Assembly (NCBI GenBank): GCA_965369835.1
Contig: CBDUSE010000001.1
Location: 4,393-68,392 of the forward strand
DNA from: an uncultured bacterium
GTDB lineage: Bacteria > Auribacterota > JABMQX01 > JAFGEW01
DNA: 64,000 nt
Direction of reading: 5' to 3'
The number at the start of each line of letters is the position of its first letter. The stretch's first letter is position 1. Of this stretch, positions 14,626-63,144 are shown in pieces. Position numbers and translations under genes: made by a program. The notes beneath the pieces were generated by a model. It was not told where the DNA came from and ran no database searches. It was given only the letters and a program-made list of their open reading frames with translations.

Positions 14626-15654
14626 GTGGGGATGCAACGTTCCGTTGTGATTCGGGCAGATGGGGGTCATCAAATCGGCACCGGGCACTTCGCTAGAATG
14701 TTCCGTCTCGCCGATCGCTTCAACCAATCGGGCAGTACGGTGACGTTCGTGTCACAATCGCTCGACGGATGCGCCGGCCTGTTCGAGAGGCGCAGCCACG
14801 AACTTATCCTCCTCCCCCCCATCTCCGAAGGCTCGAGCGCGCAGGCGGCTTCTGCGGTCGGCGCGCTCGAGCCTGATCTTATTCTAAACGACGTCCGGGA
14901 CACTTCGGACGACTACATGCGCGCGCTCCGCGCCGGCGGCGCGCGAATCGTCAACTTTGACGACTGGGGCGCCGGCGCGGCGCTGGCGGACCTGCTGGTG
15001 GACGCCAACCGCCTGCCTGAGGAGACGGACGATGGAGCGAACCCCCGCGTGCTTTTCGGGCCGGACTACATCGTGCTCGACGAGGCGTTCGAGCAGGCGC
15101 ACGGCCGGCCGAAGCCCATCCGCGGGCGGGTCGAGGAGTTCCTGGTTTTCATGGGCGGCAGCGACCCGGCGGGCCTGACGCTCGAGGCGCTGCGGGCGAT
15201 CGAGCTGCTCGAACCGGAGTGGCATACGACCGTCGTGCTCGGCTACGCCTTCCAAGACCGCGCCGAGGTGGAGGCGTTAGCGGCACGCTGCCGGAACGCG
15301 GAGGTCGTCGCCGGGGCGGACGACCTAGCGCCGAGAATGCACGGGGCCGACATGGCGCTCTCATCGGGCGGGATCGCAATGTTCGAGCTCGCGTGCGTGG
15401 GCACACCCTCGATCGTCCGGTGCCAGGTGCCGCACGAGCTCGAGAATGCGCGGCTCTTTGCCGATCGGGGCATCGTCCGATGCCTTGGGCTCGGCAGCGG
15501 TCTGGGGGCCGAGGCGGTGGCGCAAGCGCTCAGCGCGCTGGCGGCCGACGCTGCGGCGCGCCGGGCGATGAGCGAGGCGGGCAAACGGACCGTTGACGGG
15601 CGCGGACTGAGCCGTGTGATGGAGGCAATCGAACAGTGCGTCCAGCAATCATGA
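14626..15654 (+). CDS. PseG-like (MurG/GT28 C-terminal fold) UDP-sugar hydrolase / glycosyltransferase
   Basis: N-terminus VVIRADGGHQIGTGHFARMFRLA matches the PseG/GT28 signature (IRADAS..IG.GH..R). 342 aa. Confidence 0.6.
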   Translation: MGMQRSVVIRADGGHQIGTGHFARMFRLADRFNQSGSTVTFVSQSLDGCAGLFERRSHELILLPPISEGSSAQAASAVGALEPDLILNDVRDTSDDYMRALRAGGARIVNFDDWGAGAALADLLVDANRLPEETDDGANPRVLFGPDYIVLDEAFEQAHGRPKPIRGRVEEFLVFMGGSDPAGLTLEALRAIELLEPEWHTTVVLGYAFQDRAEVEALAARCRNAEVVAGADDLAPRMHGADMALSSGGIAMFELACVGTPSIVRCQVPHELENARLFADRGIVRCLGLGSGLGAEAVAQALSALAADAAARRAMSEAGKRTVDGRGLSRVMEAIEQCVQQS

Positions 15655-16868
15655 TCGTTGGGGCCGGCATCCTTCAGGAGCCGGCCATTCGAATCGCGAA
15701 GTCGCTCGGCTACGTGGTGATCGCCACGGACATCGTTCCCACCGCGCCCGGCCTACGCTGGGCCGACCGTGCCGGCATGGTCAGCAAGTTCGACGTCGAG
15801 GGGCACGTGCGCTTCGCGAAGGCGTGCTGCAAGGAGTTCGACCTGCGCGGCGTGCTCACGATCGGGACCGATGCCTCGTGCGCGGTCGCGGGCGTCGCTT
15901 CGGCGCTCAACCTGCCCGGCGTGGATCCGCGCACCGCGTTTATGGCGACGCACAAGGCGGCGATGCGGCGGCGGCTCAGGCAGTGCGATGTGCCCTGCCC
16001 GGACTTCCGCGAGGTGCGCCAGCTCGGCGAGGCGCTTTCGGCCGCCAAGGCGATCGGCTACCCGCTCGTCATCAAGCCGGTGGACAATATGGGCGCACGC
16101 GGCGTGCGGCGCATTGATACGCCCGAGGAGCTGCGCGACTTTTTCCCCGTCACGATCTTCAACAGCCGGGAGGGGGGCGCCGTTGTCGAACAGTACATGG
16201 AAGGGCCCGAGGTGAGCATTGACACGATCGTCGAGAACGGCGAGGTGCACCTGCTCACGATCGCCGACCGCCACATCACGAACGCGCCGTACTTCATCGA
16301 GGTCGGCCACACGCTTCCCTCGGCGCTGTCGCAGGACGTGCTCGACGACGTGTTCGAGGTGATGCGCCTCGGCATCGAGGCGCTGGGTATCATGACCGGC
16401 GCCTCGAAGGGCGATATCAAGATCACAGCCGGGGGGGCGAAGATCGGGGAGATGACCGCCCGTATGAGCGGCGGCTTCCACTGCCAGTACACCGACCCGC
16501 TGGCGACGGGGATGAACTCGATTAAGGCGGCCATTGACCTCGCGCTCGGCCATCGGCTCGACCTCGCGGACGTCACGCCGCGCTGGCATCGCGCCGCCGC
16601 CGAGCGGGCGATCCTCGCCGGGCCGGGTGTAGTCACGGTGATCGAGGGCGTGGACGAAGCGCTGCAGATCCGGGGCGTCGAGCACGTTTTCCTCAACGTG
16701 AAGGAAGGGAGTGTCGTGGCGCCGTTGACGAGCAACATGGGCAAACCCGGTCACGTGATTACGTCGGGCGAGACGCGCGCTCAGGCGATCGCGGCGGCCA
16801 ACCGTGCGCTGGAAACCATCCGGATCATCACTGCGCCGGTTACCGAGAAGGCGGCGGCCCACTCATGA
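15636..16868 (+). CDS. ATP-grasp domain ligase (sugar or amino-acid ligase in the glycan pathway)
   Basis: A pre-ATP-grasp region is followed by an ATP-grasp core (GYPLVIKPVDNMGARGV, EQYMEGPEVSIDTIV). An alternative start at 15651 (ATGA overlap) is possible. Confidence 0.6.
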   Translation: MRPAIMIVGAGILQEPAIRIAKSLGYVVIATDIVPTAPGLRWADRAGMVSKFDVEGHVRFAKACCKEFDLRGVLTIGTDASCAVAGVASALNLPGVDPRTAFMATHKAAMRRRLRQCDVPCPDFREVRQLGEALSAAKAIGYPLVIKPVDNMGARGVRRIDTPEELRDFFPVTIFNSREGGAVVEQYMEGPEVSIDTIVENGEVHLLTIADRHITNAPYFIEVGHTLPSALSQDVLDDVFEVMRLGIEALGIMTGASKGDIKITAGGAKIGEMTARMSGGFHCQYTDPLATGMNSIKAAIDLALGHRLDLADVTPRWHRAAAERAILAGPGVVTVIEGVDEALQIRGVEHVFLNVKEGSVVAPLTSNMGKPGHVITSGETRAQAIAAANRALETIRIITAPVTEKAAAHS

Positions 16869-16874
16869 GGGCCG

Positions 16875-17885
16875 ATGCGTGAGGGCTCACGTGTGAGCTG
16901 GAAGCGAAAAAGAGTTCTGGTCACCGGCGCCGGCGGCTTCATCGGGAGCCACCTCGTCGAGGCGTTGGTGCGTCGCGGCGCGAGGGTGCGCGCGTTTGTC
17001 CATTACAACTCGCGCAACGACTGGGCGCAGCTCGAGCGTGTGCCCCGCTCCGTGCTCGGGAACATCGAGGTGGTGGCCGGCGACGTGCGCGATCCGTTCT
17101 TTGTGAGGACGGCGGTCGAAGGGTGCGAGGTCGTTTTCCACCTCGCGGCCCTCATTGCGATCCCGTACTCGTACCAGGCGCCGCAGAGCTTCGTCGAGAC
17201 GAACGTGCTCGGCACGCTCAACGTGCTCGAGGCGTGCCGGGCGGTGGGCGTGGTACGGATGGTGCACACCTCGACGAGCGAGACCTACGGCACGGCCGAG
17301 CGCGTGCCGATGGATGAGACCCACCCGTTGCACGCGCAGTCGCCGTACGCGGCGAGCAAGATCGGGGCGGACACGCTCGTCGAGAGCTATGTGCGCTCGT
17401 ACGGCGTGCCGGCGGTGACGGTGCGGCCGTTCAACACCTACGGACCGCGCCAGTCGGCGCGGGCCGTGATCCCGGCGATCGCCACGCAGACGCTCGCTCG
17501 ACGCAAGCGGATTGCACTCGGCTCGCTCACGCCGGTCCGGGACTTCAACTACGTGAGCGACACGGTGCGCGGCTTTCTCAGCGTGGCCGAGCTCGACGAC
17601 GCGTCCGGCGAGGTGTTCAACGTCGGCACGGGCAAGGGGGTGGCGATCGGCGAGGTGGGCCGCGCGATCATTGATCTGTGCGGCAACGGGGCGCGCCTCG
17701 TCCGCGACGAGCAGCGCGTGCGGCCCGATTCGAGCGAGGTAATGCACCTTGTCTGCGACAGCTCGAAGCTGCGGACGTGCACGAGCTGGCAGCCACAGGT
17801 CTCGTTGCACGAGGGGCTCGAGCGCACGGTCGAGTTTGTGGCCCGACACCTCGGCGCATACAAGGCGGACCTCTACAATGTGTAG
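16875..17885 (+). CDS. NAD-dependent NDP-sugar epimerase/4,6-dehydratase (extended SDR family)
   Basis: VLVTGAGGFIGSHLVEAL Rossmann motif and a catalytic YAASK (YxxxK). An alternative GTG start near 16896 is possible. Confidence 0.8.
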   Translation: MREGSRVSWKRKRVLVTGAGGFIGSHLVEALVRRGARVRAFVHYNSRNDWAQLERVPRSVLGNIEVVAGDVRDPFFVRTAVEGCEVVFHLAALIAIPYSYQAPQSFVETNVLGTLNVLEACRAVGVVRMVHTSTSETYGTAERVPMDETHPLHAQSPYAASKIGADTLVESYVRSYGVPAVTVRPFNTYGPRQSARAVIPAIATQTLARRKRIALGSLTPVRDFNYVSDTVRGFLSVAELDDASGEVFNVGTGKGVAIGEVGRAIIDLCGNGARLVRDEQRVRPDSSEVMHLVCDSSKLRTCTSWQPQVSLHEGLERTVEFVARHLGAYKADLYNV

Positions 17886-17894
17886 GCAACGCGT

Positions 17895-18608
17895 ATGAAA
17901 GCGGTTGTGCTCGCCGGTGGCAAGGGAACGCGGCTCCGGCCCTACACGGCCGTGCTGCCGAAGCCGCTTGTGCCTGTTGGCGACACACCGATCCTCGAGA
18001 TCATCCTCTCGCAGCTCAGCCGTGCCGGTATGACCGACGTGACGATCACCGTCGGCCATCTCGCCTCGCTGATCGAGACCTTTTTCGGCGACGGCAGCCG
18101 GTTCGGTCTCCGCATCGAGTACTTCCGCGAAGAGACCCCGTTGAACACCGTCGGCTCCCTGCCGCTTATTGACGAGCTGACCGAGCCGTTCCTCGTCATG
18201 AACGGCGACGTACTGACCGATATTAATCTCGACAAGCTCGTCGCGTTTCACCGCGAGAAGCGGTGCATTGCGACGATCGCCACGGCGCCGCGCGAGCAAA
18301 AGGCGGACTTCGGCGTCGTGCGGTGGGACGGCGACACGCGGATCGTCGAGTTCCTCGAAAAACCGATGTCGCGCTATCACGTGAGCATGGGCGTGTACGT
18401 CTTCTCGCACGCCGTGCTCGAATATATTCCCTCGGGCAAGCCCTTCGGCTTTGACGAGCTGATGCGGGTGATGCTCGAGGCCGGCGAGCGGGTCTTTTCC
18501 TACCCGCACGACGGCTACTGGCTCGACTTGGGCCGGCCCGATGACTACGAACGCGCCATCGAGGATTTCGCTCGGATGCGGGAGCATTTCGTGGGAGCGC
18601 AACCATGA
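17895..18608 (+). CDS. Sugar-1-phosphate nucleotidyltransferase (RfbA/RfbF-like)
   Basis: MKAVVLAGGKGTRLRPYT...LPKPLVPV is the NTP_transferase signature. Confidence 0.8.
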   Translation: MKAVVLAGGKGTRLRPYTAVLPKPLVPVGDTPILEIILSQLSRAGMTDVTITVGHLASLIETFFGDGSRFGLRIEYFREETPLNTVGSLPLIDELTEPFLVMNGDVLTDINLDKLVAFHREKRCIATIATAPREQKADFGVVRWDGDTRIVEFLEKPMSRYHVSMGVYVFSHAVLEYIPSGKPFGFDELMRVMLEAGERVFSYPHDGYWLDLGRPDDYERAIEDFARMREHFVGAQP

Positions 18609-19786
18609 CGTGGGCGGTGCCATTGGCGGGCCTCGACTTCGATGAGGCGGAAGCGCGCGCGGTCCTCGACGTGCTCGAGAGCAAGTGGCTCACGATGGGT
18701 CCGGTGACCGAGCGCTTCGAACACGCGTTCGCCTCGGCCGTTGGCGTGCGCCACGCGGTGGCGGTCTCGAACGGCACGGCCGCCCTGCACCTCGCCTGCC
18801 GCGCGCTGGGAATTGGTCCCGGTGACGAGGTGATTGTGCCGTCGTTGACCTTCGTGGCGACGGCGAACGCGGTGGTCTACTGCGGGGCGACGCCGGTCTT
18901 TGCCGATATCACATCCGAGGACGATTGGACCGTTTCGCCAGACGATATCGAACGGCGCATTACCGATCGGACAGTGGCGATCATCGTGATGCACTACGGT
19001 GGTTACCCGTGCGATATGGCCGCGATCCTCGACGTGGCGCGCCGCCACGGCGTGCCGGTGATCGAGGACTGCGCCCACGCCCCGCTGGCGCGTCTCGATG
19101 GGCGCGTGGCCGGCACGTTCGGCGCGATCGGCTGTTTCAGCTTCTACACGAACAAAAACCTTGCGGTGGGCGAGGGCGGCATGCTGGTGACCGACGCCGC
19201 TGCGCTCGCTTCTCAAGCGCGCCTTATGCGGTGCCACGGCCTGTCGAGCGTGTGCGCCGATCGGCACCGTGGCGCCGGGCCGCTCTACGACGTGACCGAG
19301 CTTGGGTACAACTACCGGCTCGATGAGATGCGCGCGGCGATCGGGCTGGTGCAGCTCGACAAACTCGCCCGGAATAACCGGCGCCGTGGCACGCTCATGG
19401 CGCGATACCGCGAATTGATCTCGGGCATCGAGGGGGTGCGGCTCCCGTTCGCCACGCCGCGAGGCGAGCCGGCGCACCACATCTGTCCTGCGCTGCTCGA
19501 TGAGGATGTGGATCGGCAACGGTGCATCGAGGGGCTGCACGAACGCGGCATCCAGACGAGCGTGCACTACACGCCGGTTCACTTGTTCCGCTACTACCGC
19601 GAGCGGTTCGGCAGCGGCGCGGGCGAGTTGCCGCTGACCGAGGGGGTCGCGGCACGTGAGATTACGTTGCCATTACATCCGCTCCTGACCGAGCAGGAGG
19701 TGAGCGAGGTTGTCCGAGCGCTCGGGGAAGCGCTCGACGCGCGGCGGCACGCGCCGCCGCCACAGGGAGCGGTTGTTGTTGCTTGA
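18605..19786 (+). CDS. DegT/DnrJ/EryC1/StrS-family PLP-dependent sugar aminotransferase
   Basis: Matches the DegT family throughout (AVSNGTAALHLA, FSFYTNKNLAVGEGG with the PLP lysine, GYNYRLDEMRAA). ATGA overlap with the upstream gene. Confidence 0.85.
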   Translation: MTWAVPLAGLDFDEAEARAVLDVLESKWLTMGPVTERFEHAFASAVGVRHAVAVSNGTAALHLACRALGIGPGDEVIVPSLTFVATANAVVYCGATPVFADITSEDDWTVSPDDIERRITDRTVAIIVMHYGGYPCDMAAILDVARRHGVPVIEDCAHAPLARLDGRVAGTFGAIGCFSFYTNKNLAVGEGGMLVTDAAALASQARLMRCHGLSSVCADRHRGAGPLYDVTELGYNYRLDEMRAAIGLVQLDKLARNNRRRGTLMARYRELISGIEGVRLPFATPRGEPAHHICPALLDEDVDRQRCIEGLHERGIQTSVHYTPVHLFRYYRERFGSGAGELPLTEGVAAREITLPLHPLLTEQEVSEVVRALGEALDARRHAPPPQGAVVVA

Positions 19787-37751: not shown

Positions 37752-37874
37752 CGGCCGCGATCGCGAAAGCGGCAGTTTCTTCCCGTCGGCCGGAACTTCC
37801 TTCCCTTCGACGCCCGCCCGTATGTGTCTCGCGTTTCGCGCAGCCGGGCCCGGTGGCGGGCCTTCTTCCCTGTC

Positions 37875-37890
37875 AGCGTTGCGCAACGCT
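37875..37890 (+). terminator. Perfect 16-bp palindrome AGCGTTGCGCAACGCT followed by a T/C-rich tract; candidate intrinsic terminator or operator
   Basis: Lies in the 276-nt gap between the ylxF-like gene and fliK. Followed by TTTCCCCTTCTTTCC. Confidence 0.3.
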
Positions 37891-37916
37891 TTCCCCTTCT
37901 TTCCGATTTGTGCGCG

Positions 37917-37932
37917 TGGAACGGCAAATGCG
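37917..37932 (+). promoter_or_regulatory. Candidate sigma54 promoter TGGAAC-N5-ATGCG upstream of fliK
   Basis: GG-N10-GC spacing is exact. The -12 element deviates from the consensus. Confidence 0.3.
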
Positions 37933-38027
37933 TCGCACCTTTTCGGGGTGAAAAGAGCGGGTACACAACTTGCTCATCTGCGTTGCACGCCTGTTTGGGA
38001 CACCCATTTATCACAAGGGAAGTCGGG

Positions 38028-40031
38028 ATGGAGAGCGTGCCGAACATCATCGGCGCTTCGGATTCGATCGAGGTCATGGCCCAGGGCCGTCCCGGGCCCG
38101 GCGCCGGTCCGCCGGGAGATTTCCTGGCCGTCTTGCTCCAGAGCCTCCCTGATAAGCCGCATGAGCCGCCGGTACCGACCCGGCCCAAGCGGGAGGGCCG
38201 CTTCTTCGAGGACGACGTGTCGCCCGACCGGCCCTTTGCTCCTACGCGTGAGGCAGTCAGGACGGAATCGCCGATCCGGCCCGAGGAAGTGAGTCGGCCT
38301 GATGAGCTGCTCGCTGAAGCGGAGTTAGCACCCGAGTCGAAAATCGCCGGCCGCATAGCTTTTTCCGACATCCCTTCGACGCAGCCGAAAGAGAAAGGGG
38401 AAGGCCGGGCAGAGACTATTCCGACAAGCACTTCACTCATCAACGCACAAGAGCGCGGCGTGATCGCAGTCGAGGCTCGGATCGTGGTTGGTGAGCTAAA
38501 GACGGACATATCTTCCGAGGCACTCAGGCTTGAGGAAGCGGCCGCGGGTGAGCGAGCCAAGGTCGCGGCCGAGGGCGATCGAGCCGAGACGGCAACCGAG
38601 ACACCCGGCTCCAGTTCATCGGGCGATGCCTCGAGGGGAGGACTTCAGCCGAACGCCGTGCCCGAGCGTGCGGCGCCGGTGCAGCACCTTCCCGAGGGTC
38701 CCGAAGAACCGGATGCTGCTCGCGCATTCCTGCGTGGCGACGGAGGCCCCCCGGCAGACTTGATAGAGGCAGGGGAACGCTCAGACGTCGTCGAGGCCGG
38801 CGAGGCGCCGCCCACCAATGTGCGGGCCACGGTTTCGCTCCAACAGCCGGGCGAGCTTGTGGAGACCATGGAGATCCTCGTCGAGGACTCGCCGGCCGCA
38901 GTCCAACCCTCATCCGGACCGGTCGCTCCAAACGCTTCGCTCGAGCAGACAGCGGCGCGAGTGGTGGTCGCCACGGAGGATGCGCCGCTCGATGAGGCCG
39001 CTGCCGAGGGGAAAGAGACGCCGCATGTTGATGAGGCTCCCACGCCGATCGAGACGAAGCCGCTCGAGCGAGAAGTCCCAGAGAACGCGCGCGAGTTCAC
39101 GCTGCGGCAGATGCCCGATGCCCCGGACGAGGGGGCGCCTGAAGAAGTTCAGCCGCCTCCGGACGAAGCGGGCAGAAACGCGGGACACGTGCTTGCAGAT
39201 TCGCGCGTGCCCCGGCCTGGTGCGGGACACGGGGTGGAGCCCGCAGCGCACGAGAGCGCGGCCCGCGACGTGACGCTCACGAGTGCTGAAGCCGAGGAGA
39301 CTATGCTGCGCGCGCTTGGCCCGCGAGACCAGGCGCCGGCGAATCCATCAACGGCTTCGCCGGACGCCGTGTTGTCCGCCGAATTGTCGTCGGGCGCCGA
39401 CGGCGCCGGCAATGAGGGAAAGCAGGCCGCCCTGCGCGCCTTCGCCTCGAGCGTGAGCACGCCCGAGAGTGCCGGCGCTCCGGAGGGGGAAGCGACTGAG
39501 CGGCTCGACGCGGTGTTCAAGCAGGTGCTTTCGACCGCGGCGTTGCCGCTTGATTTGCGCCAGCGGATCGAGCTTGCCCGTTCGATCGGTCGCCAGGTGA
39601 TTCGCAGCGCGGTGGTCAGCGTCAAGAACGGCCAGACGCACGTTGTGCTGCAGCTCCGGCCGCCCTCGCTCGGCGCGGTACGGATGCAGCTTACCACCGA
39701 GGGTAAGGCGGTTTCAGTGAGGCTCAGCGTCGAGAACGAGCTCGTGCGCGGCGTGGTCGAGCAGCACCTCTCGCAGCTCCGCTCGGTCCTGCTTGAGGAG
39801 GGTTTCAACCTCGAGCGGTTCGAGGTCTCGGTGCGCAGCCAGACCGGTTCCGACGCGTGGGTTTCCGGGCACGCCGAGGGCAATGGACGGCGCGAGGGCC
39901 GCGCCGACGCCGCCGAGCGAGACGAAGCGCACGACAAGCGTGCGTCCGACGAGCGCACCGACGAGGCGCCGCTTAGCGTCGCGGCCGGTTCGGCCTTGGT
40001 CCACGATGGAACTGTTGACTACTTGGCATAG
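38028..40031 (+). CDS. fliK: Flagellar hook-length control protein FliK
   Basis: Long Pro/Ala/Glu-rich region and a C-terminal Flg_hook domain (GQTHVVLQLRPPSLGAVRMQLTTEGKAVSVRLSVENELV). Start at MESVPN, with an AAGGGA SD. Confidence 0.8.
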   Translation: MESVPNIIGASDSIEVMAQGRPGPGAGPPGDFLAVLLQSLPDKPHEPPVPTRPKREGRFFEDDVSPDRPFAPTREAVRTESPIRPEEVSRPDELLAEAELAPESKIAGRIAFSDIPSTQPKEKGEGRAETIPTSTSLINAQERGVIAVEARIVVGELKTDISSEALRLEEAAAGERAKVAAEGDRAETATETPGSSSSGDASRGGLQPNAVPERAAPVQHLPEGPEEPDAARAFLRGDGGPPADLIEAGERSDVVEAGEAPPTNVRATVSLQQPGELVETMEILVEDSPAAVQPSSGPVAPNASLEQTAARVVVATEDAPLDEAAAEGKETPHVDEAPTPIETKPLEREVPENAREFTLRQMPDAPDEGAPEEVQPPPDEAGRNAGHVLADSRVPRPGAGHGVEPAAHESAARDVTLTSAEAEETMLRALGPRDQAPANPSTASPDAVLSAELSSGADGAGNEGKQAALRAFASSVSTPESAGAPEGEATERLDAVFKQVLSTAALPLDLRQRIELARSIGRQVIRSAVVSVKNGQTHVVLQLRPPSLGAVRMQLTTEGKAVSVRLSVENELVRGVVEQHLSQLRSVLLEEGFNLERFEVSVRSQTGSDAWVSGHAEGNGRREGRADAAERDEAHDKRASDERTDEAPLSVAAGSALVHDGTVDYLA

Positions 40032-46824: not shown

Positions 46825-47013
46825 GGCCGGCCCCGCTTCGTCGCGAAACTCGACAAGCGTTCTCGTCGTATCGCATTTCTCGACGGCAAAATCTTCCCGC
46901 CCCCCTCTTCCTCTCCTTTCCCTGGGCCTCTCCTTCGTTGGTATAGGACTTGCTCAATCGTGCCGGTGAGGGGGCAAAAAGGTCCGGGTCGTTTCGAAAG
47001 GAAGGAGAACACG

Positions 47014-47619
47014 ATGCTGCGCACGCTGTCATGCCTGGTCGCCGCGCTGATTGTCGTGTCTGTTGTGCATGCCCCGCTCGCCGCCGGCGTGGACGCCGAA
47101 GCCGCCGGCGTGGACGCCGAAGCCGCCGGCGTGGACGCCGAAACCGCCGGCGCAGACGCCGAAGCCGCCGGCGCGGACGCCGAGACGACTGGCGCTCCCG
47201 AGGTGATCGAAGGCGGCGAGGCGGACGACACGGGCGGGTTCCTCTCCTACGAGGAGCCGCCGGCGCACCCGCGCCGGAGCTTCGCGAGCCTCATACTGCG
47301 GCTCGTGCTCTCGATGGCGGTCATCCTGGGCCTCATCTACGGCGGGCTCATGCTCGTGAGACTGTTGGCGCGCAAGGCCAAGGTGGCGCCCAAGTCCGAG
47401 AAGCTCATCCGCATCGTGGATCGCGCGGCGCTCGACCAGAAGCGAGCCGTCTACCTCATCAAGGTCGTTGATCGCCTCCTTGTGGTGGGCGTCGGGACGA
47501 ACGAGATCCGCACGTTGGCGCAGATCGAGGACGAGACGGCGATCGAGAACGTGCAGGAGACCGAGTTCACGGGCCACTTGCAGTCGTTGCTCGGCCGGCT
47601 TGCCGGCCGCCGGAACTGA
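47014..47619 (+). CDS. fliO: Flagellar biosynthesis protein FliO/FliZ
   Basis: Sits immediately upstream of fliP, with a signal/TM segment and a TM helix (LVLSMAVILGLIYGGLMLV). ATG at 47014 with a GGAGAA SD. Contains an AAGVDAE heptad repeat region. Confidence 0.65.
   Translation: MLRTLSCLVAALIVVSVVHAPLAAGVDAEAAGVDAEAAGVDAETAGADAEAAGADAETTGAPEVIEGGEADDTGGFLSYEEPPAHPRRSFASLILRLVLSMAVILGLIYGGLMLVRLLARKAKVAPKSEKLIRIVDRAALDQKRAVYLIKVVDRLLVVGVGTNEIRTLAQIEDETAIENVQETEFTGHLQSLLGRLAGRRN
47080..47184 (+). repeat. Five tandem copies of a 21-bp in-frame repeat (GCCGCCGGCGTGGACGCCGAA and variants) encoding (AAGVDAE)n inside fliO
   Basis: Direct reading: three identical units and two diverged units. Confidence 0.85.
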
Positions 47620-47628
47620 GGCACGCTC

Positions 47629-48390
47629 ATGAGGCCGAATGCGCGGACATGGTTCGTGGCGATCGCCCTGGTGCTCGGCACGCTCGCTGCTGCACCGGCG
47701 CTCGGCGCCTCGCCCATCAACATCACCATTGACCTGGGCGAGGGCGGTGGTCGCCAACAAGTGAGCACCGGCCTGCAGCTCGTGGCGCTACTCACGGTGC
47801 TCTCGATCGCGCCGGCGCTCCTGGTGCTGCTTACCTCGTTTACCCGCATCGTCATCGTGCTCTCGTTCCTCAAGCGTTCGCTCGGCACCGGCTCGCAGCC
47901 GTCGAATCAGATCCTGGTGAGCCTGGCGCTGTTCCTGACGTTCTTCATCATGGCGCCGGTGTGGCAGAAGGTAAACGCCGAGGCGCTCAAGCCGTACATG
48001 ACCGAGGAGATCGGCCCGCAGGAAGCACTCGGCAAGGGCCTCAAGCCGATTCGCGATTTCATGTGGCGCCAGACGCGCGAGAAGGACCTGGCGCTCTTTG
48101 TTTATGTCTCGAAGATGGAACGGCCCGAGAGCATTGACGACGTGCCGACCCACGTGCTCATCCCGGCGTTCGTCCTGAGCGAGTTGCGCACCGCGTTCAC
48201 TATGGGGTTCGTGTTGTTCCTGCCGTTTTTGGTGATCGACATGGTCGTGGCAAGCGTGCTCCTCTCGATGGGCATGATGATGCTCCCGCCGGTGATGGTC
48301 TCGCTGCCGTTCAAGATCCTGCTCTTCATTATGGTGGACGGGTGGTACCTGATGATGCGCTCGCTCGTGGCGAGCTTCGGCACCGGGTAG
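47629..48390 (+). CDS. fliP: Flagellar biosynthesis protein FliP
   Basis: Signal peptide plus conserved FliP TM core (QLVALLTVLSIAPALLVLLTSFTRIVIVLSFLK). Confidence 0.92.
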   Translation: MRPNARTWFVAIALVLGTLAAAPALGASPINITIDLGEGGGRQQVSTGLQLVALLTVLSIAPALLVLLTSFTRIVIVLSFLKRSLGTGSQPSNQILVSLALFLTFFIMAPVWQKVNAEALKPYMTEEIGPQEALGKGLKPIRDFMWRQTREKDLALFVYVSKMERPESIDDVPTHVLIPAFVLSELRTAFTMGFVLFLPFLVIDMVVASVLLSMGMMMLPPVMVSLPFKILLFIMVDGWYLMMRSLVASFGTG

Positions 48391-48392
48391 CA

Positions 48393-48515
48393 GCCCGATC
48401 GGAATCGGGTCAAAGCCCGATAGGAATCGGGTTAGAGCCCGATCGGAATCGGGTTAGAGCCCGATAGGAATCGGGTCAAAGCCCGATAGGAATCGGGTTA
48501 GAGCCCGAACAGACA
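48393..48515 (+). repeat. About 5.5 tandem copies of a 22-bp unit AGCCCGAT(C/A)GGAATCGGGT(C/T)A(A/G). Each forms a 6-bp-stem hairpin CCCGAU-(C/A)GGA-AUCGGG with a GGA-containing tetraloop.
   Basis: Direct reading of the 143-nt fliP-fliQ intergenic region. The units are perfect, or differ by a single base at two positions. Confidence 0.85.
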
Positions 48516-48533
48516 TGGAGGCGAGAGAAGACG

Positions 48534-48803
48534 ATGACGCCCGAGCTGACGGTGACGTTGATGAAGCAGACGCTCTACACCGTGCTGATGGTTGCCGGCC
48601 CGCTGCTCGCTGCCGGGCTGATCATCGGCGTGCTGGTGAGCATTTTCCAGACGGTGACGCAGATCCGCGAGATGAGCCTGACGTTTGTGCCGAAGATCGT
48701 CGGCGTGCTGTTCGTTCTGGCGATCTTTGCGCCGTGGATGGCCGCCGCGCTCATTGACTTCACGCTCAACATCTTCCGCTATCTGCCTCGGTTCGCGCAC
48801 TAG
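48534..48803 (+). CDS. fliQ: Flagellar biosynthesis protein FliQ
   Basis: 89 aa, two TM helices, conserved FliQ sequence. Confidence 0.9.
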   Translation: MTPELTVTLMKQTLYTVLMVAGPLLAAGLIIGVLVSIFQTVTQIREMSLTFVPKIVGVLFVLAIFAPWMAAALIDFTLNIFRYLPRFAH

Positions 48804-59212: not shown

Positions 59213-60331
59213 GTGAAATCGTACGACATTGTCTGTATTGCACAGAGTTCGTGGAACGGCGTGTGGGCGCGACCGCAGCAGCTCATGAGCCGCTTCGCGC
59301 GCGACCACCGGGTGCTCTTCGTGCGACCGATCTCGGTCGCCCACCTCTTGAGCAACCCGAGCGAGCGTAACTGGAAGGCGTTCCGGTGGGTCGAGAGCAA
59401 TCTGTGGGTCTATTCACCGCTCGTGCTTCCGTTTGGGCGGGCGGTGCCCGGTGTGCGCCTGATCAACGAGGCGCGGATCCGCCGGCTTGTGCGCCGCACG
59501 GTCCGCCGGCTCGGCTTCCGGGAGTTCGTGCTCTGGTTCTACGCGCCGATGTCGGAGTACCTCGTCGGGCGTCTCGGTGAGACCGCCGTCGTGTATGACT
59601 GCACCGACGCCTGGGAGCAGTTCGAGAAGACGCCGCAGTTCTGCATCACGCGCGACCGCGCGCTCTCGAGCGAGGCGGACGTGCTCTTTGCGGGCACGCA
59701 CAAGGTGCACGAGACACGCCGCGAGTGGAACCCGAACTGCCACCTGTTTACCTGCGGCGTTGACTACGGCCACTTCGCTGAGCCGCCGCCGGCGCCGCCC
59801 GAGGACATGGCGGACATTCCGCGTCCGATCATCGGCTACGCCGGGCTTGTTGACGAGGCGCGCATGGACTGCAAGCTGCTCGAGCGCATGGCGTGCGAAC
59901 ATCCCGAGTGGTCCATCGTGCTCGTGGGCCCCGTGCAGGAGGATCTGCTGATCCGCACGCTGCGTCACCCGAACATCCGTTTCCTCGGGCTGAAGCCGTA
60001 CGCCGAGCTGCCTCGCTACGTCGCCGCCTTCGACGTGGCGATCGTGCCCTACAAGGTGGACGAGGCGACGCACAGCATCAATCCGACGAAGCTGCTCGAG
60101 TACATGGCGGCCGGCAAGCCGATCGTCTCGAGTGCGCTCGACGAGGTGAAGAGCTGCTACCTCGACCGCCTCTCGATCGCCGAGGGCCGCGACGACTTTA
60201 TCCGCAGCATCGAGCGGCTGCTCGGCGGCGAGGCGACGCTCCCGATCGAGGCGAACCAGGCGCTGGCGGCCGAGCAGTCGTGGGAGCGCGTCACGACCCA
60301 AATGCTGGACCTTGTGGAGGCGACGTTATGA
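59213..60331 (+). CDS. Glycosyltransferase family 4 (GT-B, GT1 clan)
   Basis: GTG start with an AGGAGAG SD. C-terminal GT4 motifs (FLGLKPYAELPRYVAAFDVAIVPY, NPTKLLEYMAAGKPIV). Confidence 0.75.
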   Translation: MKSYDIVCIAQSSWNGVWARPQQLMSRFARDHRVLFVRPISVAHLLSNPSERNWKAFRWVESNLWVYSPLVLPFGRAVPGVRLINEARIRRLVRRTVRRLGFREFVLWFYAPMSEYLVGRLGETAVVYDCTDAWEQFEKTPQFCITRDRALSSEADVLFAGTHKVHETRREWNPNCHLFTCGVDYGHFAEPPPAPPEDMADIPRPIIGYAGLVDEARMDCKLLERMACEHPEWSIVLVGPVQEDLLIRTLRHPNIRFLGLKPYAELPRYVAAFDVAIVPYKVDEATHSINPTKLLEYMAAGKPIVSSALDEVKSCYLDRLSIAEGRDDFIRSIERLLGGEATLPIEANQALAAEQSWERVTTQMLDLVEATL

Positions 60332-61320
60332 ACATGCCGTTTGCCCAGATCGAACCGACCACGGTGTGCAACCTGCGCTGCGCGATGTGCGAGCGCGACC
60401 GCCTCGACTCGGTCGGCCACATGCGGCTTGATCAGTTCGAGCATATCCTCGACGAGCTTGACGGCCTCAGCGCGGTCAAGCTCCAGGGGCTCGGCGAACC
60501 GATGCTCAATCCAGACTTCGTCCCGATGATGCAGGCGCTGAGGGCGCGCGGCATCCGTGCTTACTCGGCGCTCAACGCGACGCTGATCAACGCGGACAAC
60601 GCCGAGTCGCTCGCGTCGGTGGCCGACCGGATCGAGCTCTCGCTCGACAGCGCCGACCCGGCCCAGTTCAGCGCGATCCGGCGCGGCGCGTGCCTGGACG
60701 ACGTGCTGGACCGGATTCGCGTGCTCGTCGAGGCGCGCAACCGCCGGGGCCAGTTCCTCGAGTTGAGCGCCAACGCCGTCGTACACACCGCCGACCGGGG
60801 CGCGCTCAAGGCGCTTTTCGAGCTGATAAGTCGCCTGGGGCTCGACCGGCTCAACCTCAACGTGGTGCAGTTCTGGGACATCGGCGAGGGCGACGAGCCG
60901 GCCCCGAAAGGCGGCGCCGTGCTCGATGCCGAGGACCTCGACCGGATTCGGGCCGAGGTGGACTCGCTCTCATGGGACTGGAGCCTGCCTGCACGGATGA
61001 TGGGCCCCACGGAGGGCTACGAGAACTGCTCGTGGTATCGCGGCGGCATCTACGTCTCGTGGGAGGGCTACGTCACTCCGTGCTGCCAGCGACCTGACCC
61101 GCGCACGATCAACTTCGGCAACATCCTCGAGCAGTCTTTTGGGGCGATCTGGAACAGCGACGCGTACCGGCGCTTCCGCGAGGCGCTTGCCGCGGGCCGA
61201 CCGCCGGAGACGTGCCGCACCTGCACGATGTACTACACGCACGGCGAGGGAAAATGGACATCATCTACCTCTCGGGCTACGACCTCCGGGGCTTTGTCCG
61301 GTTCCGACCCCAACACCTGA
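60328..61320 (+). CDS. Radical SAM enzyme with a C-terminal SPASM/twitch domain
   Basis: CNLRCAMC (CX3CX2C) near the N-terminus, and C-terminal Cys clusters (CSWYRG...TPCCQR...CRTCTMYY). The ATGA start overlaps the GT4 stop. Confidence 0.75.
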   Translation: MNMPFAQIEPTTVCNLRCAMCERDRLDSVGHMRLDQFEHILDELDGLSAVKLQGLGEPMLNPDFVPMMQALRARGIRAYSALNATLINADNAESLASVADRIELSLDSADPAQFSAIRRGACLDDVLDRIRVLVEARNRRGQFLELSANAVVHTADRGALKALFELISRLGLDRLNLNVVQFWDIGEGDEPAPKGGAVLDAEDLDRIRAEVDSLSWDWSLPARMMGPTEGYENCSWYRGGIYVSWEGYVTPCCQRPDPRTINFGNILEQSFGAIWNSDAYRRFREALAAGRPPETCRTCTMYYTHGEGKWTSSTSRATTSGALSGSDPNT

Positions 61321-62435
61321 TGACGCGGCTGGCGCAGCGCCATCGGGTCCTCTACGTCGAGCCGACGCGCGCGGGCAAGTGGCGGCGGCCGTGGCGTTGG
61401 GGCCGCCTGCGCCGCGAGAGCGCCGGCCTGCTGATTCTTGAGCCGCCCGTGCTGCCCGGTTTGCGGTGGAGCCGTGCGGTCAGGGCGCTCAACGAAGCGC
61501 TGCTGCACCGGCGGATCAAGACTGTCATGCACCGCCTCAAGTTCCGTGACGCCGTGACCATTATCGGCACGCCTTTTGCAGCAAAAATTGCCGGTTCCCT
61601 GGGGGAGCGCCTCGTCGTCTACGACTGCAATGATGACTGGGCCGCGATCCCCAGGCTGCCCTCGGCGTACCTGCGGCGGCAGGAGGAGCAGCTTGCCCGG
61701 CGGGCCGACCTCGTGTTCGCCACGAGCCGGCGGCTCTTCGAGCGGTTGGCGCGCCTCAACGAGCGGACCCGGCTCCTACCGTCCGGCGTGGACGTGGAGC
61801 ACTTCGCTCGCGCCGGCGAGCCGGAGGAAGTGCCCGAGGAAATGCGCGGACTCGCGTCGCCGGTGATCGGCTCGATCGGGTCGGTCAACGCGACCAAGGA
61901 CGACCTCGACCTGCTCGAGGCGGTCGCCGCGCGGCGGCCAGCGTGGTCGTTCGTGTTCGTCGGGCCGGTCATGGCGGACGTGGACCTCGGGAAGTACCCG
62001 GCGCTACGCCAATGCGCGCGGTTCCTCGGCTCGCGACCATACGAGGCATTGCCGGCGTATGTGCGGGCGATGGACGTGTGCGTGCTCGCGTACAAGCGCA
62101 ACGCGTTCACCGCGTCGGCGAACCCGACGAAGGTGTTCGAGTACCTGAGCGCGGGCAAGCCGGTCGTAGCCACGCCGCTCGAGGACCTGGCGGAACTCGA
62201 CCGGTTCGTGGCGCTGGCCCGTGATACCGATGAGTTCGTCACCGCGATCGAGGCCGCGCTCGAGCGGGGTGATGACGACGCGATACGCAAGGCGCGCATC
62301 GAGCGCAGCCGGCAGCGGTCCTGGGAGACGATCGTGAGCGCCTTCGAGGCGCAGATTGAGCACCACCTGATGGAGAGAGGCAATGTATCGAATCGCGCTG
62401 TGCATCATTTCATACAACAGGCGGCCGTACACTGA
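61254..62435 (+). CDS. Glycosyltransferase family 4, paralog of the gene at 59213
   Basis: The N-terminus (DIIYLSGYDLRGFVRFRPQHLMTRLAQRHRVLYVEP) aligns with that of the first GT4, and the same C-terminal NPTKVFEYLSAGKPVV motif is present. It overlaps the three-prime end of the rSAM gene by 67 nt. Confidence 0.7.
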   Translation: MDIIYLSGYDLRGFVRFRPQHLMTRLAQRHRVLYVEPTRAGKWRRPWRWGRLRRESAGLLILEPPVLPGLRWSRAVRALNEALLHRRIKTVMHRLKFRDAVTIIGTPFAAKIAGSLGERLVVYDCNDDWAAIPRLPSAYLRRQEEQLARRADLVFATSRRLFERLARLNERTRLLPSGVDVEHFARAGEPEEVPEEMRGLASPVIGSIGSVNATKDDLDLLEAVAARRPAWSFVFVGPVMADVDLGKYPALRQCARFLGSRPYEALPAYVRAMDVCVLAYKRNAFTASANPTKVFEYLSAGKPVVATPLEDLAELDRFVALARDTDEFVTAIEAALERGDDDAIRKARIERSRQRSWETIVSAFEAQIEHHLMERGNVSNRAVHHFIQQAAVH

Positions 62436-63144
62436 GCGGACGCTCACGCCGCTGCTCGAGCAGCTCGAGAGCCCTGAACACGACCTGCACATCTTCATCT
62501 ATGACAACGCCAGCAGCGACTCGACGCCCGAGTACCTTCGCGAGATCGAGGCCCGTCACGAGAAGCTCACCGTGGTGTTCGGCGAGGAAAACATCGGGGT
62601 CACGAACGCCACGAAGCACCTGCTCGAGGACCTCGTTTACGACCACGGGTTTGACTTCATCGCCAAGAACGACGACGACGAGCTGCTGCCCGAGGACTGG
62701 ATGGGCGTGTGCGACTACTGGAGCCGGTTCGAGGCGGCGGGCGGCATCGTCCTCGGCTTCAAGCGGCAGGGGCTCGAGGACTATTTTGCGGGCCTCGAGT
62801 GGGTCAGTCGCCGGCGCGAGAACCTGACGCCGATCGTGGCGGGCCCCTATATCGGCTTCCTGAGCTACATCGTCCCCGGCTTCCAGATGACGACCGAGGC
62901 GTGGTGGCGCCGGATCGTGCCGCACCTGAGCGACTTCGGCCAGTCGCTCGGCGGCTGGGACCCCTCGATGGCGATGACCGTGCGCGACGTGCTCGGCAAG
63001 CAGTGTCTCGTCATCTTCAACCGTCTCTCGATCCACTTCCAGCGCGACGAGGATTACCCCGAATACTCGGCCTCGAAGAAGGAGCAGGTGGACAACGTCC
63101 GCGAGGCGGTCTTTGACCTGCGTCGTCAGGGCGCGCTCAAGTGA
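62383..63144 (+). CDS. Glycosyltransferase family 2 (GT-A fold)
   Basis: IALCIISYNRRPYTERTL...IFIYDNASSD...DDDE is a GT2 signature (DXD-like). Confidence 0.7.
   Translation: MYRIALCIISYNRRPYTERTLTPLLEQLESPEHDLHIFIYDNASSDSTPEYLREIEARHEKLTVVFGEENIGVTNATKHLLEDLVYDHGFDFIAKNDDDELLPEDWMGVCDYWSRFEAAGGIVLGFKRQGLEDYFAGLEWVSRRRENLTPIVAGPYIGFLSYIVPGFQMTTEAWWRRIVPHLSDFGQSLGGWDPSMAMTVRDVLGKQCLVIFNRLSIHFQRDEDYPEYSASKKEQVDNVREAVFDLRRQGALK

Follow-up and report, generated by a model that had tools for sequence, protein, structure and literature searches.

MIRU minisatellites, with units of 46-101 bp, are among the repeats described from the spaces between operon genes. They are intercistronic tandem repeats, presumed to be co-transcribed with their neighbors, whose copy number varies between strains (PMC3635867); there are some 40 loci per genome, with small ORFs that overlap the neighboring genes. 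The REP and BIME elements of Enterobacteria and Pseudomonads are short extragenic palindromes that form RNA hairpins within operons. They occur as hundreds of scattered copies, mostly solitary or in inverted pairs, affect mRNA stability, and lower translation of the upstream gene when they lie <16 nt from its stop codon (PMC12306157).

A further point of comparison is provided by RNAs that bind CsrA. CsrB, CsrC, RsmX, RsmY, and RsmZ are separate genes with promoters and terminators of their own, whose RNAs expose GGA in serial stem-loops, in diverse loops of 5-8 nt, at spacings fit for CsrA dimers. In published CsrA consensus sites, an A is found two bases upstream of the GG. A CsrA dimer can bridge sites 10-63 nt apart, with an optimum at >18 nt (PMC7652899). 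In C. jejuni, where CsrA is partnered by FliW, it binds mainly flagellar mRNAs, including the flaA leader, but also intercistronic sites (Cj0310c-Cj0309c, Cj0805-dapA), where it represses the downstream cistron; the flaA mRNA in turn titrates CsrA in a sponge-like manner (PMC4894983). The binding sites there comprise a single GGA motif or two, located in an abundant flagellin mRNA or at a Shine-Dalgarno sequence.

The DNA analyzed here (the window) is a 64-kb stretch, with a G+C content of 65%, from an uncultured lineage, and the spacer between its fliP and fliQ genes contains a tandem array with features of each of these systems. Like the MIRUs, the array is a strain-polymorphic tandem repeat between genes of an operon with which it is presumably co-transcribed, but its unit is of 22 bp, forms a perfect hairpin, contains stop codons in every frame, and has a single known locus. 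Like a REP, the unit is a short extragenic stem-loop palindrome in an operon, and the first hairpin begins 3 nt past the fliP stop codon, within the distance at which REPs act on upstream translation; in contrast to REPs, it is arranged head-to-tail, and no further copy was found in 84 kb of the source genome. The array shares with the Csr and Rsm RNAs a series of stem-loops that each expose GGA at suitable spacing, but its hairpins are identical and have 4-nt loops, no promoter or terminator marks it as a separate gene, it matches no Rfam Csr/Rsm family, its copy number is unstable, and the CsrA of its lineage is antagonized by FliW. With C. jejuni it has in common a FliW-partnered CsrA focused on flagellar mRNAs; it differs in that its candidate binding sites are tandem GGA hairpins in an export-gate mRNA expected to be of low abundance.

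The fliP-fliQ spacer and its operon

The window carries a single long flagellar operon on the + strand (~30.7-56.1 kb; Pfam scans and the called genes of an overlapping contig), with sigma-54 regulators upstream. In its 5' part the order is flgB, flgC, fliE, and fliF, then, beyond further ORFs, a FliK-like gene, flgD, flgE, flbD, motA, motB, fliL, and fliL; in its 3' part, fliM, fliN, fliO, fliP, fliQ, fliR, flhB, flhA, flhF, flhG, an unknown ORF, and fliA. In relatives, fliI and fliJ occupy the position between fliF and the FliK-like gene. The product of the latter, a Flg_hook protein with homologues in loci L001, L002, L005, and L006, differs greatly in length from one close relative to another (735 or 667, 545, 343, and 425-435 aa), and the L002 gene contains many short tandem repeats. 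On either side of the flagellar cluster lie genes for sugar nucleotides and glycosylation (ATP-grasp, dehydratase, nucleotidyltransferase, DegT aminotransferase, radical-SAM/SPASM, glycosyltransferases, NeuB, and CMP-sugar synthetase); together with a Maf-like gene in a relative, these suggest flagellin glycosylation.

Table 1. Positions of the fliP-fliQ array, its neighbors, and related features. Positions are those of the window unless another locus is named.
Feature	Position	Strand	Description
Glycosylation genes	15636-19786; 59893-63144; L163 10794-14127		Flank the flagellar cluster
FliK-like gene	37824-40031		Flg_hook protein
fliO	46960-47619	+	
fliO tandem repeat	47080-47195		21 bp, in frame; five AAGVDAE-like heptads
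fliP	47629-48390	+	253 aa; Pfam FliP E 2.6e-80; stop TAG 48388-48390
Tandem-repeat call (TRF)	48384-48508		22-bp period, 5.7 copies, score 192, 87% matches
Perfect cores (n = 5), first positions	48394, 48416, 48438, 48460, 48482	+	Pattern search
Unit 1	48393-48414	+	GCCCGAT-CGGA-ATCGGGT, linker CAAA
Unit 2	48415-48436	+	Loop AGGA, linker TAGA
Unit 3	48437-48458	+	Loop CGGA, linker TAGA
Unit 4	48459-48480	+	Loop AGGA, linker CAAA
Unit 5	48481-48502	+	Loop AGGA, linker TAGA
3' half unit	48503-48508		GCCCGA
Ancestral spacer part	48503-48533	+	GCCCGAACAGACATGGAGGCGAGAGAAGACG; colinear with the 30-38 nt spacers of relatives
fliQ Shine-Dalgarno	48517-48521	+	GGAGG, inside the ancestral spacer part
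fliQ	48534-48803	+	89 aa; Pfam Bac_export_3 E 2.6e-26
fliW	L167 12733-13197		Pfam FliW E 1e-37
csrA	L167 13191-13415		74 aa; Pfam CsrA E 8e-21
Composite hairpin element	L167 13470-13565		After csrA, source strain
Composite hairpin element	L059 3800-4000		Enlarged flhB-flhA spacer, both orientations
18-bp hairpin array	L002 18387-18518		7.4 copies; spacer between fliA and the next gene
fliW, csrA, and third flagellin gene	L169 12729-14602		Relative

The spacer holds five perfect copies of GCCCGAT[A/C]GGAATCGGGT on the sense strand, with 4-nt linkers and a period of 22 (Table 1). The description in the initial annotation of a 143-nt gap with tandem 22-bp GGA-hairpin units is borne out by the tandem-repeat call, by a pattern search for perfect CCCGAT[A/C]GGAATCGGG cores, and by the ORF borders. 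Its count of "about 5.5" units holds as far as the five perfect copies go, but the half unit at the 3' end is part of the ancestral spacer and not a decayed repeat. Within the array there is also a higher-order period of 66 bp (units 1-3 versus 4-6, 92%). The C-terminus of FliP, ASFGTG followed by the stop codon, is the same in relatives.

Neither a sigma-70-like promoter nor an intrinsic terminator is predicted in or beside the spacer, and because of this the array would be transcribed as part of the flgB-to-fliA operon mRNA; no sigma-28 promoter match was seen in the spacer by eye. Of the other identities considered for the unit, the closest approach to a sigma-28 promoter is GCCCGATA, which is like the -10 element GCCGATA of flgM and fla3 but has an extra base and no suitably spaced TAAA. 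An intrinsic terminator within the array is ruled out by the absence of a U-tract; a small ORF or translational-coupling peptide of the MIRU kind, by the stop codons in the units and by a unit length, 22, that is not a multiple of 3; and a CRISPR array, by the lack of unique spacers, the units abutting with only the 4-nt linker.

A single unit taken alone is predicted to form a 7-bp stem with a 4-nt AGGA or CGGA loop (-9.1 to -9.4 kcal/mol), which agrees with the 6-bp stem first described, extended by one G-U pair beyond its six Watson-Crick pairs. The array region is much more stable in predicted folding than shuffled versions of it (z = -6.1). The five independent hairpins expected from the first inspection are not, however, its equilibrium prediction: at minimum energy the whole array nests into a single long rod of -67.7 kcal/mol, whereas a fold into local hairpins reaches -56.3 kcal/mol at best, and five simple 7-bp hairpins come to -49.9 kcal/mol. 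The G-U pairs make the fold of the antisense strand less stable (-57.8 kcal/mol). The predicted folds leave the GGA triplets largely unpaired (mean unpaired probability 0.57-0.99, in a -30/+20 mRNA context). Masking of the fliQ ribosome-binding site in a manner dependent on copy number was also considered, but folding gives it no support: the predicted accessibility of the fliQ Shine-Dalgarno sequence is the same whatever the number of copies.

Copy number within the species and spacers of its relatives

An exact look-up of the FliQ protein returned nine contigs from other datasets; the species is represented by ~10 datasets. FliQ is identical in all of the array-bearing strains, the flanking DNA of the same-species contigs is 98-100% identical to the window, and the array is present in every strain of the species sampled. 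Its length differs among them. The spacer is 55 nt long with one unit in GCA_030669985.1 (L173), where the assembly may be collapsed; 77 nt with two units in ERZ23498673 (L178); 143 nt with five units in the window and in L171; 209 nt with eight units in ERZ23498683 (L174); and 376 nt with at least 11 units in ERZ23498719 (L172), a scaffold with an N gap. All of these are copy numbers from short-read assemblies, possibly collapsed and hence lower bounds, and the single-unit allele is especially uncertain. Four Logan contigs begin or end within the array, as would be expected where a repeat interrupts a short-read assembly. The composition of the units is strain-dependent as well, with a linker TCAGA and a loop AAGA in other alleles that are not found in that of the window; the polymorphism is therefore real even if the exact counts are uncertain. 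A second VNTR is present 1.3 kb upstream, in the periplasmic or N-terminal part of FliO, with five heptads in the window and three in L173 of the same species.

Of the 22 positions of the unit, 18 are invariant across 30 complete copies. Those that vary are the first loop position (C in 19, A in 11), the second (G in 28, A in two), and two positions of the linker, so that variation affects none of the 14 stem positions and four of the eight unpaired ones (hypergeometric p ~0.01). GGA is kept in 28 of the 30 units; the other two, each first in its array, have the loop AAGA. Extra constraint on the GGA positions was not measurable in this set, one of the three being variable compared to three of the five other unpaired positions.

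The nearest relatives were reached via FliP homologues, at 12 loci (L002-L009 and L059-L061) that include the NCBI MAG GCA_016931415.1, labelled "Verrucomicrobia bacterium." Their FliP proteins are 84-92% identical to that of the window, and their DNA ~82-84%. The array unit is missing from the fliP-fliQ spacer at all 12 of these sister-species loci, where gene order is unchanged and the spacer is only 30-38 nt long, and comparison of the orthologous spacers thus gives no sign that a sponge-like module is conserved across species. The expectation that fliP and fliQ should be adjacent or overlapping also needs revision for this clade, in which the ancestral spacer is ~33 nt. Subtraction of five 22-bp units (110 bp) from the spacer of the window leaves CAGCCCGAACAGACATGGAGGCGAGAGAAGACG, 33 nt, which is colinear with CGCCCCGAAGCGACGCGGAGGCATGAGACGACA of L006-L009; L002-L005 and L059-L061 have similar spacers. 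The array is therefore an exact 110-bp addition, with AGCCCGA at either border.

A head-to-tail unit of 22 bp is within the 10-100 bp range of VNTRs and minisatellites, and its copy number is polymorphic within the species. A minisatellite was one of the alternatives raised in the initial annotation, and it is the best fit to the data (copy numbers of 1, 2, 5, 8, and at least 11; sister species without the array). The array is probably a young, species-specific, copy-number-variable hairpin minisatellite that has grown in the ancestral 33-nt fliP-fliQ spacer, where it is tolerated and perhaps mildly used. It may have originated from a single 22-bp hairpin-forming insertion beside a pre-existing GCCCGA, with later expansion and contraction by replication slippage or unequal recombination, aided by the hairpin. 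In the RNA, five units would form stable hairpins or a rod (predicted at -56 to -68 kcal/mol) extending from 3 nt past the fliP stop codon to 14 nt before the fliQ ribosome-binding site, which should still be accessible. The most likely effect would be structural and modest, each unit adding 22 nt to the distance between fliP termination and fliQ initiation. The array may also act as a barrier to 3'-to-5' exonucleases, or slightly lower the output of FliP, like REP hairpins <16 nt from a stop codon. Selection for function, rather than recency, could account for the invariance of the stem and for the persistence of the array in every strain.

Other hairpin repeats were found in flagellar spacers of the clade. 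In L002 (JGI 3300017989), the spacer that follows fliA is filled by copies of an 18-bp unit, GGGGCCGCAGGGCGGCAA; each forms a hairpin (GCCGC-AGG-GCGGC) without GGA, and the region is predicted to fold into a rod of -90.6 kcal/mol. This second intercistronic hairpin minisatellite, in the same operon but in a sister species, is independent of the first. A composite hairpin element, AGTCCCCGCAGGGGAC..GCCACGGGCGTCAGCCCGTGG..AGCCCCCGCAGGGGGC, is found after csrA in the source strain and in an enlarged flhB-flhA spacer of L059 (Table 1). It is 88-96% identical between species and spacers, and two assemblies of the source break off there; its appearance is that of a REP/MITE-like family dispersed in the clade. 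Hairpin repeats in flagellar intercistronic spacers are thus recurrent in this clade irrespective of GGA.

CsrA and FliW as possible partners

The initial annotation compared the array to a CsrB/RsmZ-type sponge, for which there should be a CsrA in the same genome. No csrA was found in the window or the first contig extension by tblastn with E. coli and B. subtilis CsrA as queries; it was located, together with fliW and on the contig of the array, by walking the contig of a second assembly past the window via FlgM and FlgK homologues. The genes downstream on this contig are flgM, two flagellin genes, flgF, flgG, flgA, flgH, flgI, flgJ, flgN, flgK, flgL, fliW, and csrA, with the last two right after flgL, overlapping by 7 nt, ~35 kb downstream of fliP. 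The CsrA protein (MLVLDRKVNQSIMIGNIEVIVTEVRGDHVKIGVQAPRCVPVHRKEIYEIIRSQNIRAAESQPVDLDEVRGLLQI) keeps the LVL-RK and VHRKEIY motifs and has the C-terminal extension that is typical of FliW-partnered CsrA.

The relative GCA_016931415.1 has the same csrA-fliW module, followed by a third flagellin gene, fliD, and fliS. The leader of this third flagellin gene (fla3) has a sigma-28-type promoter, TAAA-N15-GCCGATAC, then a hairpin CCCGGCA-AGGA-UGCCGGG, and ~22 nt past the hairpin a GGA-containing Shine-Dalgarno sequence, which is the textbook layout of a two-site CsrA target. The fla1 leader of the source genome has a hairpin GUCCAG-AAGGA-CUGGAC. These two leaders are presumed to be native CsrA targets, of the same design as the array unit.

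If CsrA is bound by the array, dimers could occupy neighboring pairs of GGA hairpins, and copy number would be a heritable dial. Several lines of evidence point this way. The CsrA encoded on the contig is of the flagellum-dedicated, FliW-partnered type, and the array sits in a flagellar operon. The GGA is unpaired in most predicted folds, and its spacing is 22 nt within the array and 28 nt from the last loop to the Shine-Dalgarno GGA of fliQ, in both cases inside the range bridged by a dimer (PMC7652899). The flagellin leaders of the clade supply GC-stem AGGA or AAGGA hairpins at a comparable ~22 nt from a Shine-Dalgarno GGA, and the FliW-type CsrA of C. jejuni is a precedent for intercistronic binding and for titration by an mRNA (PMC4894983). 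The pattern of loop variation, with GGA nearly always kept while the N of NGGA is freely A or C, is as a CsrA site would show. The unpaired GGA in each unit plausibly makes the array a credible extra binding platform for FliW-partnered CsrA.

There is also much that argues against this. No Rfam Csr or Rsm family matches at gathering thresholds in the whole window, or even at E <= 10 in 48300-48620, a permissive search returning only spurious miRNA-like hairpin matches far below threshold. In the loop context, U[A/C]GGAA, the second base before the GG is not the A found there in the flagellin leaders of the clade (AAGGA); the two AAGA loops lack GGA; and the GGA positions are no less variable than other unpaired ones. 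At least one sister species with csrA and fliW (GCA_016931415.1) does without the array, whose copy number is itself unstable, from about 1 to at least 11, and the analogous hairpin array of L002 has no GGA. Chance alone yields a GGA-loop hairpin about once in every 10 kb of a strand, and the flagellar context is partly a matter of ascertainment, the window consisting mostly of flagellar genes. For global titration in particular, the fliPQR message is expected to be scarce: export-gate proteins are needed in few copies per cell, and the mRNA that carries the array would therefore be a poor titrator. Among the features of a sponge, then, the five GGA hairpins, the presence of csrA and fliW, and the suitable spacing are seen here, while a family match, conservation, a stable copy number, and a transcription unit of its own are not.

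On this balance, CsrA binding as the explanation of the array is a serious but doubtful proposition. In one possible variant, acting in cis, CsrA would bridge the last hairpin and the GGA of the fliQ Shine-Dalgarno sequence, so that free CsrA represses fliQ and the genes downstream; in another, which is more sponge-like and likewise possible, local uptake of CsrA would shift a near-equimolar balance among flagellin, FliW, and CsrA. It is rather unlikely that the array is, more specifically, a heritable, copy-number-tunable CsrA-binding module recently evolved in the export-gate operon, with slippage serving as a contingency switch for the assembly of flagella and the translation of flagellin.

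Dispersed repeats, operators, and significance

The array might instead be one locus of a dispersed REP- or MITE-like family of mobile hairpins, landed in the spacer and then amplified. Like REPs, the unit is a short extragenic palindrome (PMC12306157); other flagellar spacers of the clade contain a dispersed composite hairpin element; and the insertion is flanked by a 7-bp direct repeat, AGCCCGA. This direct repeat is, however, simply the first 6-7 nt of the unit itself, and, apart from the stem of the unit, the 110-bp insert has no inverted repeats at its ends. A MITE would have terminal inverted repeats and target-site duplications, and would have them at several loci; only one locus is known in this case.

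Searches for the unit elsewhere also speak against dispersal. The rest of the 64-kb window yielded only one match, with three mismatches, which is at chance level, and the 84 kb of source genome (the window plus L163 and L167, from ENA ERZ25748669 NODE_25, a second assembly of the same strain) has no second locus above chance at up to three mismatches, which leaves room for a few distant copies. The 18-mer unit has 49 single matches in 185,579 species genomes, 47 of them inside long ORFs, and 54 in a metagenome collection of 241 million records, the source genome not being among these; by our estimate roughly 35 or more would be expected by chance, so that the counts are at about that level. 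In viral contigs the 16-mer core has 47 matching stretches, all single except for one with two matches ~540 bp apart. No arrays of the unit were found in the genome, metagenome, or viral collections, and there was no blastn match in plasmids. The initial annotation named scattering over many unrelated loci as a refutation; in the sequences scanned the unit is not so scattered. On the evidence of these scans it is not an abundant REP or MITE, and membership in a dispersed family seems very improbable.

Least likely of all is a role at the DNA level, as phased operators for a dimeric DNA-binding protein, a roadblock or iteron-like series in which a pair of inverted 6-bp half-sites 4 bp apart recurs every 22 bp (~two helical turns): the half-sites are invariant, the centers and linkers variable, and the phasing suitable, but no candidate for the binding protein is encoded nearby, nor any replication or partition gene, the copy number is highly variable, the invariant G and T beside the palindrome add to the helix in sense RNA alone, as a G-U pair, without continuing the DNA symmetry, and the sense RNA is more stable than the antisense.

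The hairpin minisatellite remains the preferred reading. If the array is this and nothing more, it is a clean case of an essential, tightly packed operon tolerating a fast-evolving structured insert between export-gate genes, and it could serve to tell strains of this uncultured lineage apart. If its GGA hairpins do bind CsrA, it would be a regulatory RNA element born within one species, linking tandem-repeat instability to post-transcriptional control of flagellar assembly. Should the tunable module prove true, each extra 22-nt GGA hairpin would alter the amount of CsrA held on the fliPQR-flhBA message, or the repression of fliQ, and the array would have no described precedent, either as an RNA array antagonist or cis-target of a FliW-type CsrA or as one in the form of a VNTR.
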